From positions 4,928,001 to 4,992,000 of the forward strand of contig OZ242195.1 in NCBI GenBank assembly GCA_965205975.1: a stretch of DNA of 64,000 nucleotides, given 5' to 3'. Below, piece by piece: positions 5,163-50,769 of the stretch. The DNA is from Candidatus Latescibacterota bacterium (GTDB taxonomy: Bacteria; Latescibacterota; UBA2968). Under the pieces are notes generated by a model that saw only the letters and a list, made by a program, of their open reading frames with translations, was not told the origin of the DNA and searched no databases. The position numbers and the translations under genes were made by a program. How positions within the stretch are numbered: the stretch's first letter is position 1; every line of letters begins with the position of its first letter.

Positions 5163-6083
5163 ATGCCCATTCCAAAGTCAGACAAGATCTGGTTTAATGG
5201 GAATTTTGTAGGTTGGGACGATGCCAAAATTCACGTGCTGTCCCATGTGGTGCATTACGGTTCGAGTGTTTTTGAGGGGATACGGTGCTATCATACCGAA
5301 AGAGGACCGGCCTGTTTCAGGCTTCGAGATCATGTGAAAAGGCTTTACGATTCGGCCAAAATTTATCGCATGGAAATTCCCTATATGCAGGATGAACTGG
5401 AAGCGGCTATTTTGGAGACGATTCGCATTAATAACTTGCAGGCGTGTTATATCAGGCCCGTGGTTTTTCGGGGGTTTGGCGAATTGGCCGTCAACCCAAT
5501 GCCATGTCCGGTTGAGGTGGTGATCGCGGTGTGGGAATGGGGCAAGTACCTGGGTCCAGAAGCTCTGGAAAAAGGTGTGTCGGTTCGGTTTGCGTCGTGG
5601 AATCGCCTGGCGCCCAATACCATGCCTTCGCTGGCCAAGGTGGCGGCAAATTATATGAACGCACAACTGATTAAGATGGAGGCGATGGCCGATGGATATG
5701 CCGAGGGCATTGCCCTGGATACGCAGGGTTATGTGAGCGAAGGTAGCGGCGAGAATATTTTTATGGCGAAGAATGGGCAGATTTACACGCCTTCTACCGG
5801 GTCGTCTATTTTGCCTGGTATTACGCGACATTCGGTTATTACACTTGCCCGAGATTTGGGACATACGGTGACGGCGCGACCGATTCCAAGAGAGTCTCTG
5901 TATATTGCCGATGAGGTTTTTTTTACGGGTAGTGCAGCAGAGATCACGCCTATTACGGCTATTGATCATATCGATGTCGGCTGTGGTTCTCGGGGTGAGA
6001 TCACAAAGAAGCTGCAGGATGCCTTTTTTGCCGTTGTGGAAGGGCGTGCGGAAGATAAGCGCGGCTGGTTGACGTATGTTTAA
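5163..6083 (+). CDS. ilvE: Branched-chain amino acid aminotransferase
   Basis: [19 protein letters not shown] and ILPGITR motifs. Confidence 0.95.
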
Positions 6084-6918: not shown

Positions 6919-7521
6919 ATGATTGCGATTGTAAATTACGGGATGGGGAATTTGCGAAGTGTTCAAAAGGCGTTTGAACACGTTGGTGCGAAGGCCGTTA
7001 TTGTCGATAAACCCGAAGATATCGATACCGCCGAGCGCGTTGTACTTCCCGGGGTGGGGGCGTTTGGCGATGCGATGAGTAATCTGAAAACAGCGAGATT
7101 AATCACGCCCATTGTAAAGGCTATTTCAGAAGGCCGACCTTTTTTGGGTATTTGTTTGGGATTGCAATTGATGTTTGCCGAGAGTGAAGAAATGGGACAG
7201 CACAGGGGATTGGACATTTTGCCGGGGAAGGTGAAGCGTTTTCCCGAAGGGCAGCGCGTTCCGCAAATTGGGTGGAATGCAGTGCGGATTCAGCGCGAGA
7301 CAGCACTTTTAGATGGCGTGCCCAATGGGTCTTATTTTTATTTTGTTCATTCTTTTTTTGTTGCATCTGAGCGCGATGAAGATGTGATGGGGGTGACGGA
7401 TTACGGGATTGATTATGCGTCAATTGCCGGAAATGATCGGGCTTTTGGCGTGCAGTTTCACCCCGAAAAAAGTCAAGATGCTGGCTTGAAGATTTTGAAG
7501 AATTTTGCGGAGAAAGTGTAG
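6919..7521 (+). CDS. hisH: Imidazole glycerol phosphate synthase, glutaminase subunit
   Basis: LPGVGAF, GICLG and QFHPEKS motifs; ATG at 6919. Confidence 0.96.
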   Translation: MIAIVNYGMGNLRSVQKAFEHVGAKAVIVDKPEDIDTAERVVLPGVGAFGDAMSNLKTARLITPIVKAISEGRPFLGICLGLQLMFAESEEMGQHRGLDILPGKVKRFPEGQRVPQIGWNAVRIQRETALLDGVPNGSYFYFVHSFFVASERDEDVMGVTDYGIDYASIAGNDRAFGVQFHPEKSQDAGLKILKNFAEKV

Positions 7522-7522
7522 G

Positions 7523-8320
7523 ATGCTGGCAAGGCGAATTATTCCGTGTTTAGATGTGAAAAACGGTCGCAATGTGCGCGGGGTCAGGTTTTCTGCCGAT
7601 AAAGACGCTGGCGATCCCATTGCACTGGCGAGACGCTATGATGCAGAAGGCGCAGATGAACTGGTGTTTTACGATATTACGGCATCGGCGGAGAAGCGCG
7701 ATATTGTCGGCAAACTCGTGCGGCGCGTGTCCGAAGAGGTGTTTATTCCCTTTACGGTTGGCGGGGGCGTTCGCACGTATCAGGATATTCGCACAATTAT
7801 CGAAGGGGGTGCAGAAAAAGCGTCGATCAATTCGGCTGCTGTACACACGCCTGAAATTATTACGCAAGGGGCTGAAAGTTTTGGATCGCAGGCAATTGTG
7901 GGGTCAATTGATGCAATTCGACGGCCGAATTCCAATCAATCAGAGGATGTTCGCTGGGAAGTAGTTATCAATGGCGGACGCACATATACTGGACGAGATG
8001 CCCTCGAATGGGCTGAAGAACTGGTGGATCGCGGTGCGGGCGAACTGGTTTTGAACAGTATTGATGCGGACGGGACAAAAGATGGATACGATATTGAGTT
8101 AAATCGCATGGTTGCCGAGCGCGTGGATGTGCCGATTGTGGCGTCTGGGGGTGCTGGGGGGCCAGAGGATATGTACGCGGTGTTGTCGGAAGGCAAGGCG
8201 AGCGCGGCACTGGCTGCGTCGATTTTTCACTACAATCAATACAGTATTGCGGAAGTCAAAACGTATCTCGCAGAACGCGGGGTCCCGGTGCGCCCCAAGA
8301 TCGAAATTGATTTGACATGA
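7523..8320 (+). CDS. hisF: Imidazole glycerol phosphate synthase, cyclase subunit
   Basis: [20 protein letters not shown] and ASGGAG motifs. Confidence 0.96.
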
Positions 8321-24046: not shown

Positions 24047-27255
<3,209 letters not shown>

Positions 27256-48446: not shown

Positions 48447-49141
48447 TGTCTGTTAATCGCCGACGTTTTCTGTGTCAATCCGCTGCATTGGGTGCGGCGG
48501 TTTTTGTGACGCCAGGGGTTTTTGCCGAGCAACTGACGCTTACGCCCCGGCAAACCGAGGGCCCGTTTTATCCGGATAAAATGCCGCTGGATGTCGATAA
48601 TGATCTCGTGATAATCAACGATGCGATTACGCCCGCAGTGGGAGAGATTACGCATCTGACCGGGCGCGTTTTGGATGTGAATGCCAATCCCGTAAAGGAT
48701 GCCATCGTGGAGATCTGGCAGGTCGATCGCAATGGCGTTTATATTCATACCGATGCTCCGCGGCGCAATAGGCGAGATACAAATTTTCAGGGTTTTGGGC
48801 GTTTTGAGACGGGATCTACAGGTGAATATCGCTTTCGGACGATTAAGCCCGTGCGGTACGGGGGGGCGCGAACCGCTCATATTCATTTTGCGATTAATAA
48901 AAATGGGCACCGGCTTTTGACGTCGCAGATGTACGTGAAAGATAATCCAGACAATGAGTGGGATTCTATTTTCAGGAATACGGGTCGCGCGTCTCACGAT
49001 TTGCTGTCCGTGCCGTTTAAGCCTTTGCCCGGGTCTGAGGTTGGCGAATTGACGGCAAATTTTGATATTGTGATTGGCGAGACGCCCGAAGATCGGGAAA
49101 ATGATCGCGGACGACGAGGCCGGCGACGCGGGTGGTGGTAA
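48446..49141 (+). CDS. Tat-exported intradiol ring-cleavage dioxygenase family protein
   Basis: NRRRFL Tat signal; EGPFY, EIWQ...GVY, TIKP..Y and R.AHIH iron ligands. Confidence 0.88.
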   Translation: MSVNRRRFLCQSAALGAAVFVTPGVFAEQLTLTPRQTEGPFYPDKMPLDVDNDLVIINDAITPAVGEITHLTGRVLDVNANPVKDAIVEIWQVDRNGVYIHTDAPRRNRRDTNFQGFGRFETGSTGEYRFRTIKPVRYGGARTAHIHFAINKNGHRLLTSQMYVKDNPDNEWDSIFRNTGRASHDLLSVPFKPLPGSEVGELTANFDIVIGETPEDRENDRGRRGRRRGWW

Positions 49142-49156
49142 AAAGATAGGATATGC

Positions 49157-49185
49157 TTGACGAAATAATAATTTCTGGCTATTCT
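49157..49185 (+). promoter_or_regulatory. Sigma70-type promoter of the three-gene insert
   Basis: TTGACG-17 nt-TATTCT. Confidence 0.6.
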
Positions 49186-49246
49186 TTTTTGCACTGATGG
49201 TCCATTTCGACGACTGTGGTAAAAGCTCTGGCTAAGGATTTGCTGA

Positions 49247-49648
49247 ATGCATAGAACACCCGAGATTGTTTTCCGGGCAATGAAAGAGGATTCTGATGGT
49301 AAACCGCGAACGGGAAATTCTGCAATAACATTAGGAGTTCGCATCGAGGGAAGCCACGCTGATATTCAGATTGATAGTCAAGGACAAGTACATCCAAAGA
49401 CAGGCGGGATGTCCGTAACACCTGATGATTATAGACAACTACCGAAACATAGATTGCCCGAATCCTTGAGCGGCAGAGGACGCCACCCTATTTTTTCTTT
49501 TCAAATTGCTAACTTACCTTCTACTTTGGCTTTGCGTAAAGATAAACCAGGTCACGCCCTTGTTGAACCATCGAAGTCCTGTTTGTTCGAGGAATATGAG
49601 CAAAATTTACATGGCACCAGAGAAGATTGGGTGAAATGTCATGAGTGA
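49247..49648 (+). CDS. Tse2-like ADP-ribosyltransferase-fold toxin (putative)
   Basis: FRAM...LGVR...DI...V.P.TGGMSV...H.LVEP...T...W pattern; candidate residues R10/S56/H103. Confidence 0.62.
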   Translation: MHRTPEIVFRAMKEDSDGKPRTGNSAITLGVRIEGSHADIQIDSQGQVHPKTGGMSVTPDDYRQLPKHRLPESLSGRGRHPIFSFQIANLPSTLALRKDKPGHALVEPSKSCLFEEYEQNLHGTREDWVKCHE

Positions 49649-49928
49649 AGCTTTCGAGCGATATCGTTTTTTAGAACTTGATCTCATTTATGTCCGCTGG
49701 CAACATGCAGGATTTGAATCTGAGGAAGAAGAGTCAATCTTGGAGGATATGGATGTGGTGTGGTATGAACTGAGCGAAGAAGAGCAACAGTTACTATACA
49801 GCGAAGGGACGAAGTCTTTAATTCGCGACGCCAGCGCAACATTATCGCATAGCTTTGGAACCGATAAAGACATTCTCGGAGATTCCAATTCTGGTACGCC
49901 GGTCCGTAAACTTAAAGAGGTAGCCTGA
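49641..49928 (+). CDS. Small acidic hypothetical protein (candidate immunity/antitoxin)
   Basis: 95 aa, E/D-rich; overlaps the toxin stop by 8 nt. Confidence 0.6.
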   Translation: MSEAFERYRFLELDLIYVRWQHAGFESEEEESILEDMDVVWYELSEEEQQLLYSEGTKSLIRDASATLSHSFGTDKDILGDSNSGTPVRKLKEVA

Positions 49929-50359
49929 TGTATCTCACCGCTCACCGAGTTTATGTAAAAAAAGATAATATATGCGGTATTAACGCTTTTCTCCACCGGC
50001 ATGAAGATCATGATTTTCCCGAAGATATACAAAAAGATATAAGTATCGTTGACCGAATCCCCAATCAAAATCCAGGCACACTCATCGCAAAATCCGTAGA
50101 TTTATTGCCGGGAGGCAATGCCGTCCTCAGCTTTGTCGATATAGTTGGTAAAGAAAAAATAAAAAAAAAGCGCATACAATACTTCCTTGACCAAATGGAA
50201 CGCGATATTGAACACCATTTTCAAGAGAGTTATGTACCCATTACCAAATTTGAGTCAGATATCGCCGTTAAATTTGGAGTCACTTATGGCTTACATGGAA
50301 ATGAGATAAGAGAGTATAAGGCCCTCACAGAACCGGCAATGCGTTTATTCGAGGTGTAG
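49928..50359 (+). CDS. Hypothetical protein
   Basis: 143 aa; TGATG coupling to the upstream gene. Confidence 0.65.
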   Translation: MYLTAHRVYVKKDNICGINAFLHRHEDHDFPEDIQKDISIVDRIPNQNPGTLIAKSVDLLPGGNAVLSFVDIVGKEKIKKKRIQYFLDQMERDIEHHFQESYVPITKFESDIAVKFGVTYGLHGNEIREYKALTEPAMRLFEV

Positions 50360-50388
50360 AAGCCACCCCAGATGGTGCGAAAAGATCC

Positions 50389-50769
50389 ATGAATAGAAAT
50401 TATATATACGATTTCCGATTTACTGACGTTTTGCTGCGCGTGGTCGTTGCACTGACGCTCATGGGAATGGTTGCGCCCTGTCTGTGCTGGGCGCATCAGG
50501 CTTCGATGCCAGAGTGTCATGCTGCAGCAGAGTTGAAAGATTGCTGTTGCAGCAAAGAGGCGGCGGTCGATCAGCAGATGCCGGCGCGCGATCTGGCTGT
50601 TTTGCCGGGTGAATGGCAAAATCCAAAGTTGGATCTGACTTGTGTGACGTTGTATCCCTCTGTTGTTCTTTCCCAGAGTGATTTCCTTCCTTTTATGGTG
50701 GATGATCGCCAGAGAGCTTTGCGATCACCGCCCGATCTGTATCTCTACCACGCTGCATTTCTCATCTGA
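50389..50769 (+). CDS. Cys-rich hypothetical protein upstream of the cus operon
   Basis: Hydrophobic N-terminus, CH and CCC motifs, SPP..Y....FLI C-terminus. Confidence 0.55.
   Translation: MNRNYIYDFRFTDVLLRVVVALTLMGMVAPCLCWAHQASMPECHAAAELKDCCCSKEAAVDQQMPARDLAVLPGEWQNPKLDLTCVTLYPSVVLSQSDFLPFMVDDRQRALRSPPDLYLYHAAFLI

Follow-up and report, generated by a model that had tools for sequence, protein, structure and literature searches.

Two kinds of described system come closest to the locus reported here. In the Tse2-Tsi2 pair of Pseudomonas aeruginosa, Tsi2 uses an acidic patch to neutralize the toxin Tse2, whose active site it occludes (PMC6099711). CmdTAC of Escherichia coli is an anti-phage toxin-antitoxin-chaperone (TAC) system whose toxin is an mRNA ADP-ribosyltransferase, whose antitoxin has a helical N-terminal part and a long C-terminal tail, and whose chaperone guards the antitoxin against proteolysis until a phage infects (PMC11618068); a second report adds that TAC modules are interchangeable and that the HigBAC chaperone is itself the phage sensor (bioRxiv 10.1101/2024.02.24.581848). 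Here we describe a cassette of three open reading frames (ORF1 to ORF3) from a Latescibacterota genome, found in a 64,000-nucleotide stretch of contig OZ242195.1 (positions 4,928,001 to 4,992,000; hereafter the window). We tentatively read the cassette as a three-part toxin-antitoxin-helper module that is organized like CmdTAC and has a third component other than SecB, a reading to which our analysis gives a little less than an even chance.

The genome that carries the cassette is a single contig of 5.56 Mb, 98.3% complete. All three genes lie on the forward strand: ORF1 (49,247-49,648; 133 aa) encodes a Tse2-family protein of ADP-ribosyltransferase (ART) fold and is the predicted toxin, ORF2 (49,641-49,928; 95 aa) encodes an acidic protein and is the predicted antitoxin, and ORF3 (49,928-50,359; 143 aa) encodes an alpha/beta third component, constant across loci and present here as a truncated, core-only allele. 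The genes are translationally coupled, as the preliminary description of this DNA had stated; the 8-nt overlap of ORF1 with ORF2 and the TGATG stop/start of ORF2 and ORF3 can both be read in the sequence.

The preliminary description had also noticed an R...GGMS...H pattern in ORF1 and assigned the protein to the Tse2-like ARTs, and it was borne out on both counts. R10, G54, S56, and H103 are invariant across 58 diverse family members, and E107 is nearly invariant in the same sequences. The Pfam profile PF18648 (ADPRTs_Tse2) matched ORF1 below threshold, at E 9e-5 (23.6 bits, spanning profile positions 15-134 of 137), and 20 of 21 close relatives matched it with E values of 0.1 or less, down to 1.2e-7. 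A structure model built from a 58-sequence alignment scored highly (predicted local distance difference test, pLDDT, 97.3; predicted template modeling score, pTM, 0.90), and Foldseek placed Tse2 at the top (5ako_C, E 1.5e-3, prob 1.00), with the next match at E 0.64. In VIA-align, the model superposed on Tse2 with Z 10.8 and a root-mean-square deviation of 2.4 Å over 110 residues at 21% identity; the rows below were Tpt1/KptA (Z 6.4-6.9), AvrPphF ORF2 (5.0), CC0527 (4.7), PltC toxin and typhoid toxin chains (3.2-3.4), ParT (3.1), and the A subunits of cholera and pertussis toxins (2.8). The stronger rows, PltA among them, were mostly of ART fold; below Z 3.2 the list also took in chains of no relation, RNA polymerase subunits for instance. 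Searches of PDB sequences with ORF1 alone and with one family profile did not find Tse2, and a second family profile reached it only at E 0.42, so that the link between ORF1 and Tse2 rests on Pfam and on the fold. By its predicted structure, ORF1 is a Tse2-type ADP-ribosyltransferase-fold protein.

ARTs take their catalytic residues from strands 1, 2, and 5, and the R-S-E ARTs have a glutamate at the front of strand 5 (PMC7955679). In the ORF1 model, R10 falls in the first strand (residues 7-11), S56 in the second (55-59), and H103 at the front of the fifth (103-108). ORF1 has no leader, delivery domain, or N-terminal extension: the fold match spans residues 4-129, and upstream of the gene there is nothing but the promoter. 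A profile of the close family, run against 1.84 billion representatives, matched 1401 clusters at E <= 1e-3, of which 789 reached E <= 1e-10. The best 150 matches were mostly proteins of 100-190 aa; about 24 exceeded 250 aa, and in most of these the match was C-terminal. Judged from these longer relatives, the ORF1-type domain is a toxin module in other proteins: when eight of them were scanned, PF18648 was C-terminal and above its cut-off (31-49 bits) in six, and RHS repeats or an RHS core were present in five, one of which also had PT-HINT and SpvB/TcdB parts.

The preliminary proposal of a self-contained system supposed that the three genes would be found together elsewhere, and they are. 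In a set of 27 loci from other genomes, drawn from one-genome-per-species contigs, the full triad occurred in the same order at 21, spread over several phyla: 17 were Latescibacterota-type (one of them labelled Gemmatimonadota), one came from Lentisphaerae, and three came from myxobacterial metagenome-assembled genomes (MAGs) representing three myxobacterial families. At two Acidobacteriota loci, ORF1 and ORF2 were followed by an unrelated third ORF. Three further loci were RHS-linked: at L034 the ORF1-type domain terminates an RHS protein of >1052 aa, and at L035 and L038 the gene lies beside RHS genes and is followed by a different ORF of 74-81 aa. The last of the 27 (L040) was a truncated ORF1 match. 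A search of phages gave one match for ORF1 and none for ORF3. The match is a 140-aa homologue (32% identity, E 9e-9) in the temperate Vibrio phage PQ189376.1 (Vinavirales; L094, 262-943), where a two-gene version lies at the genome end: a 91-aa acidic ORF overlaps the ORF1 homologue, there is no ORF3, and the pair, both annotated as hypothetical, adjoins a LexA-like repressor gene.

Closer to the window, ORF1 was present in 12 of 61 related genomes sampled; leaving aside the window's own genome, it was found in 7 of 20 genomes of the same genus and in 4 of 15 of one sister-family genus. All 11 of these other loci kept the order ORF1-ORF2-ORF3 beside the same upstream gene, which was 80-97% identical to that of the window, while the triad proteins were 53-87% identical. 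In pairwise comparisons of the window with five same-genus loci, the ratio of nonsynonymous to synonymous substitution rates (dN/dS) was 0.23-0.42 for ORF1, 0.15-0.27 for ORF2, 0.23-0.53 for the ORF3 core, and 0.07-0.12 for the upstream gene, and these ratios indicate that all three genes are under purifying selection. Synonymous divergence was roughly 2-5 times higher in the cassette (0.27-1.13) than in the upstream gene (0.15-0.30), and thus the cassette alleles are older than their chromosomal surroundings or have been exchanged independently of them.

Exchange is seen among the loci that carry the third gene. The ORF3 profile matched 35 of 168 genomes of the phylum. We distinguished type A loci, which carry ORF1, ORF2, and ORF3, from type B loci, in which ORF3 follows two unrelated genes; of 28 Latescibacterota loci, 18 were intact type A, seven intact type B, two degraded A, and one degraded B, and ORF3 was present in all. 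The first gene of type B encodes a 170-aa protein unrelated to ORF1, and the second a protein of 144-192 aa with weak TPR matches. Types A and B share one chromosomal site, both in the family of the window and in a sister family; they also have their promoter in common, and ORF3 is near-identical between type A and type B loci. A tree of 26 ORF3 cores, from which the two degraded type A loci were excluded, required eight changes of the A/B label, no fewer than with shuffled labels (mean 7.0); well-supported branches forced at least three of them, and two supported sister pairs each combined a type B with a type A locus (L065 with L066, and L067 with L055). As the loci compare, ORF3 is the constant part of the cassette and ORF1 with ORF2 the exchangeable part. 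We also saw by eye a D...E-x-S pattern in the type B 170-aa protein that could belong to a PD-(D/E)xK-like nuclease core (L046, 3216-3725, minus strand; L047, 1008-1526, plus strand; L053, L064, L065, L067, and L068).

The third gene keeps still other company. In five Latescibacterota genomes, a second ORF3-like gene, a paralogue, lies at another place. The module around it (type C), seen at L082 (2799-4337, plus strand) and L079 (2233-3340, minus strand), joins an ORF3 paralogue of 240-247 aa to a gene 2 of a third kind (125 aa) and, at L082, to a 152-aa gene 1, which is seemingly missing from L079. Among the myxobacteria, ORF3-profile matches numbered three in a Kofleriaceae MAG and six in one Polyangiaceae MAG (five clear, one weak and partial). 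The Polyangiaceae genome (that of L037; L087, L088, L090, L092, and L093) has two full Tse2-like triads and three other pairs. One myxobacterial pair consists of a weakly HEPN-like gene (E 0.023, profile positions 7-115 of 117) and a partner of 140-143 aa, another of a weakly CHAP-like gene (E 2-3e-4) and a partner of 158-187 aa, and another pair before an ORF3-like gene shows a weak DUF6575 match. The TPR, HEPN, CHAP, and DUF6575 matches all fall below the Pfam cut-offs; Pfam gave no family, or weak sub-cut-off matches only, for the first proteins of types B (170 aa) and C (152 aa) and for several gene-2 proteins.

ORF2 stands where Tsi2 stands relative to its toxin, as had been pointed out, and the description of it as small and acidic was accurate (95 aa; isoelectric point, pI, 4.33; 22 D+E versus 9 K+R). 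It lies directly after ORF1 in every triad locus and has a conserved N-terminal acidic core at about residues 1-62. No Pfam (E <= 1), PADLOC, NCBIfam, or PHROGs family was found for it, and it is not a detectable Tsi2 homologue: its profile, run against all PDB sequences at E <= 10, returned four unrelated chains and no Tsi2. What ORF2 shares with other gene-2 proteins is its end. In the type B gene-2 protein, residues 92-144 are 41-47% identical to residues 43-95 of ORF2, and among unrelated gene-2 proteins the likeness is limited to the last 30-50 residues. The tail of ORF2 (about residues 66-95; 49,836-49,925, plus strand) is the sole part common to unrelated gene-2 proteins that precede ORF3-like genes. 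Across all types (18 tails), the C-termini consist of P-x-R or I-R, a few residues, and V/A-A: the window ends in TPVRKLKEVA, others in IPARHLVAA, PPRKKLAA, LPRVAA, or SIREAA, and the paralogous loci L082 and L079 in ...PIRNAA or ...SIREAA. At two loci without ORF3 (L030 and L031), the gene-2 protein lacks the shared tail and ends differently. A single complex prediction for ORF3 with ORF2, run without controls, returned interface scores (ipSAE) of 0.01 and 0.00, the mark being 0.32, and speaks neither for nor against binding.

ORF3 itself resembles nothing solved. Its N-terminus, MYLTAHRV, is nearly invariant across phyla, and its model (pLDDT 89.9, pTM 0.85) consists of two beta-hairpins, a long helix, a third hairpin, and a C-terminal helix. 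Pfam gave no family at E <= 1, and PHROGs gave a tail sheath at E 0.12 only, which is chance level. Foldseek found no match at E <= 1e-3 in the PDB (Top7 came closest with E 0.077, followed by SycE with 0.36) or in BFVD, VIA-wide against 48,161 chains gave a best Z of 4.3 and none at Z >= 5, and the best score in the ESM Atlas (0.76) was non-informative. Taking the model as it stands, the fold matches no solved structure. We considered whether ORF3 might be an ADP-ribosyl hydrolase that undoes the modification made by ORF1, and set this aside because ORF3 also accompanies pairs in which gene 1 has no detectable ART similarity.

What leads us to the TAC-like reading is a third protein that stays constant while the predicted toxin and antitoxin before it vary and the antitoxins keep a common tail. 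The gene order is toxin, antitoxin, helper (by predicted role), and one helper family is found with different pairs (types A, B, and C and the myxobacterial pairs). Since ORF3 is kept while relatives swap genes 1 and 2 for unrelated pairs, it is likely to be a shared helper. The preliminary description had not considered a TAC-like organization, which the occurrence of ORF3 with several unrelated pairs now suggests; its proposal of a self-contained, inward-acting system of toxin-antitoxin (TA) type is supported by the ART fold of ORF1, the acidity of ORF2, the genome-wide absence of a type VI secretion system (T6SS), and the recurrence of the triad. In the mechanism we propose, ORF1 would be toxic to the cell that makes it and would use NAD+, and ORF2 would bind and block ORF1. 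ORF3 would bind the ORF2 tail and either stabilize ORF2 or sense through the tail, and release of ORF1, for example when a phage infects, as with CmdTAC and HigBAC, would arrest growth. A more ambitious version, which we regard as doubtful, is that ORF3 founds a family of non-SecB TA helpers with a new fold that hold the antitoxin tail, serve at least five unrelated toxin types in MAGs of several phyla, and sense infection so as to release the toxin. The cassette would then be an independent invention of the TAC principle, with a Tse2-type ADP-ribosyltransferase as its intracellular suicide toxin.

Several observations weigh against the TAC-like reading. One concerns ORF3 as a SecB, a candidate we rejected: no homology appeared in Pfam or in the profile search of PDB sequences, where the best match was a heat-shock protein at E 0.033 that we consider not meaningful. 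By fold the comparison decides neither way, SecB being outside the best 50 VIA-wide rows for ORF3; PF02556 (SecB) was absent from the whole genome by profile search. Because ORF3 is not a SecB homologue by sequence, "chaperone" can be applied to it by analogy only, and, as a SecB homologue is the defining feature of TAC systems, the cassette would work like a TAC system without being a member of the family. The last three to four codons of gene 2 coincide with the Shine-Dalgarno sequence of ORF3 and with the stop/start overlap, so that the tail may be conserved in part at the nucleotide level, as ribosome-binding site of ORF3, and only the upstream P-x-R part argues for a protein motif. With regard to the toxin, the 23.6 bits of ORF1 fall short of the PF18648 cut-off of 26.6 bits, the activity of Tse2 itself is given only as "likely NAD-dependent" and was inferred from structure (PMC5471719), and the strand-5 catalytic place is taken by H103 and not by a glutamate, so that ORF1 chemistry may differ from that of the R-S-E ARTs. 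No PADLOC or NCBIfam family covers any of the three proteins, there is no recognizable defence island around the locus, and tblastn of ORF1 and ORF3 against plasmids gave no match. Finally, the ORF3 of the window lacks an extension of about 100 aa that its closest relatives possess.

The alternative that survives best, although we think it unlikely, is an interbacterial effector-immunity locus, in which ORF1 would be exported, ORF2 would provide immunity, and ORF3 would be an export adaptor or chaperone loading interchangeable effectors. Allele swapping at a fixed locus, with a synonymous divergence 2-5 times that of the flank, is typical of such loci, but ORF3 also follows the weakly HEPN-like pair, a kind usual in intracellular TA modules. 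Loci of this kind that have an adaptor usually place it first, and here the order is effector, immunity, helper. The domain itself terminates RHS, PT-HINT, and SpvB-type polymorphic toxins, including the RHS protein of L034, and Tse2 is a T6SS effector secreted via Hcp binding (PMC5471719); ORF1, however, is a toxin domain only, with the fold starting at about residue 4 and no leader, PAAR, or RHS part. The lack of T6SS genes near the locus, remarked on in the preliminary description, extends to the genome as a whole: searches for the VipB sheath (PF05943) and Hcp (PF05638) gave 0 matches in this 98.3%-complete assembly, and both hit the E. coli control.

The setting of the cassette bears on a second alternative. 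The cassette had been described as an AT-richer insert between unrelated operons, and both points hold: GC content is 0.38-0.45 over about 49,100-50,450 against 0.49-0.57 in most neighbouring intervals, and the flanking genes, a 231-aa upstream gene that by eye encodes a dioxygenase and a downstream efflux operon that by eye is TolC/CusB/CusA-like, are unrelated to it. The promoter that had been read as TTGACG-17-TATTCT (49,157-49,185, plus strand) is present and conserved in relatives, whereas its match to the consensus (9 of 12 positions) is no better than chance. A scan of 2.6 kb found three promoter-like sites versus 4.0 +/- 2.1 in shuffles, and because such sites are no commoner than in shuffles, the consensus match by itself means little. 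In an alignment of the window with five relatives (four type A and two type B loci), the elements CTTGACG, AATAA, and TGGCTA were invariant in 6/6; the -35 and most of the -10 were invariant, while the remaining spacer and the nearby intergenic DNA varied, and the site is common to both cassette types. In one relative (L021; genome G010), an insertion of about 490 nt lies between the conserved promoter and ORF1, at about 5470-5990.

The promoter region and ORF3 are thus the two constant ends of the swapped segment, and some three-part TA systems have a regulator as their third gene. ORF3 could in that case be a DNA-binding autoregulator of a two-gene TA pair, constant because its promoter is constant. 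We regard this as quite improbable: the ORF3 model has no helix-turn-helix or ribbon-helix-helix, no DNA-binding fold scored above Z 4.3, and its pI is 6.15. A short inverted repeat visible by eye between the -35 and the -10 of the window (GAAAT-4-ATTTC) speaks for such a regulator but is imperfect in relatives, and the tail common to gene-2 proteins would be left unexplained.

The truncation of ORF3 went unremarked in the preliminary description. Most Latescibacterota ORF3 proteins are 244-260 aa long and have an extra C-terminal domain of about 100 aa; in the window, the ORF3 family profile continues past TAG and TGA codons to 50,422, model position 161 of 246. By blastn, window 50,250-50,419 corresponds to 7004-7173 of the relative L015 and window 50,446-50,500 to 7493-7547, so that about 320 nt of the nearest relative are represented by about 26 nt. 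These alignments indicate that a stop codon and a deletion of about 300 nt removed the extension of the window ORF3, leaving a remnant and the deletion junction at 50,360-50,445 (plus strand). The core is probably sufficient, because a 93%-identical cluster of the 143-aa form has 18 member sequences and the ORF3 proteins of distant phyla are core-only (133-148 aa); other forms of 143-160 aa exist as well. Longer ORF3 relatives occurred only as the 252-260-aa extension form, with no fusion to gene 2 or to toxins. The extension also matches alone (E ~1e-5) inside other frames of 112-480 aa, for example at G010:C1:2055732-2055971 and G127:C67:23122-23301, and is probably an independent domain because it is found there by itself. 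The gene downstream of ORF3 (50,389-50,769; 126 aa) derives its start and first codons from the deleted extension, and its relatives match it only from residue 2-18 on. That the cassette is merely a decaying remnant, with a non-working ORF3 and a toxin inactive or being lost, as the truncation and the empty (G016, G001), remnant (G011), and degraded (L057, L075, L076) same-genus sites might suggest, is very improbable given three intact genes with dN/dS of 0.15-0.53, the 18-member cluster and other short forms, and the core-only proteins of distant phyla.

Outside the cassette, the window holds two thiamine pyrophosphate (TPP) riboswitches back to back about 100 nt apart, at 25,781-25,870 (minus strand) and 25,968-26,063 (plus strand), with scores of 67.1 and 57.2 bits against a gathering score of 54.3; they presumably control divergent thiamine genes.

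Tse2-type domains are already known as polymorphic-toxin and T6SS effector domains, and so are TAC systems with an ART toxin. Within open-access papers and bioRxiv full text, we found neither a Tse2-type domain as a TA toxin or in a stand-alone three-gene module, nor a constant non-SecB third component of unrecognized fold that spans several toxin types and phyla; the full-text search for Tse2/PF18648 gave T6SS papers and reviews, ART surveys, and passing mentions only. If the toxin-antitoxin-helper reading is true, a domain known as a weapon against other bacteria would here act on the cell that makes it, and TAC systems, so far defined by a SecB-like chaperone, would have a counterpart in a second, unrelated helper family that serves many toxins. 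An antitoxin tail plus a guardian protein would then be a general design. ORF3-like genes would also offer a handle for finding TA or defence modules in uncultured phyla, by way of the two genes that precede them, and ORF3, with a confident model and no structural match, is a target for structure determination.

Compared with Tse2-Tsi2 of P. aeruginosa (H1-T6SS; 5AKO), the cassette has in ORF1 a fold closest to Tse2, with a sub-threshold match to the same PF18648, and a small acidic protein encoded directly downstream; it differs in that identity in the structural alignment is 21%, ORF2 has no Tsi2 similarity, the genome has no T6SS, and there is a third gene. RHS polymorphic toxins that end in PF18648 share the domain (ORF1 profile E 1e-24 to 1e-29; PF18648 31-49 bits), but at 300-3500 aa they include delivery parts and, at L035 and L038, are followed by a different small gene, whereas ORF1 is the bare domain. 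ParT-ParS and DarT-DarG likewise join an ART-fold toxin to a neighbouring gene that neutralizes it, and ParT was among the fold matches (Z 3.1). Their ART clades differ from that of ORF1, however, and they are two-gene systems; the DarG antitoxin is an enzyme, and ORF2 shows no enzyme family.

The TAC systems come closer in organization. HigBA-SecB of Mycobacterium tuberculosis (PMC5105189, PMC6377645), like other SecB-type TAC systems, has a constant helper, variable pairs, and an antitoxin C-terminal extension, as the cassette does; its toxins are RNases and its helper is SecB-like, whereas the ORF3 fold is unrecognized and binding of ORF3 to the tail is our proposal. CmdT belongs to the diphtheria-toxin clade and has a catalytic Tyr, unlike ORF1, which resembles Tse2 and whose R, S, and H are invariant; CmdC is homologous to SecB, as ORF3 is not, and the cassette matches no PADLOC model. 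What the cassette shares with CmdTAC is the order of toxin, antitoxin, and third gene, an ART-fold toxin, and a small antitoxin whose N-terminal part is structured and which ends in a C-terminal tail, and with the TAC systems more widely, a third component common to different TA pairs.

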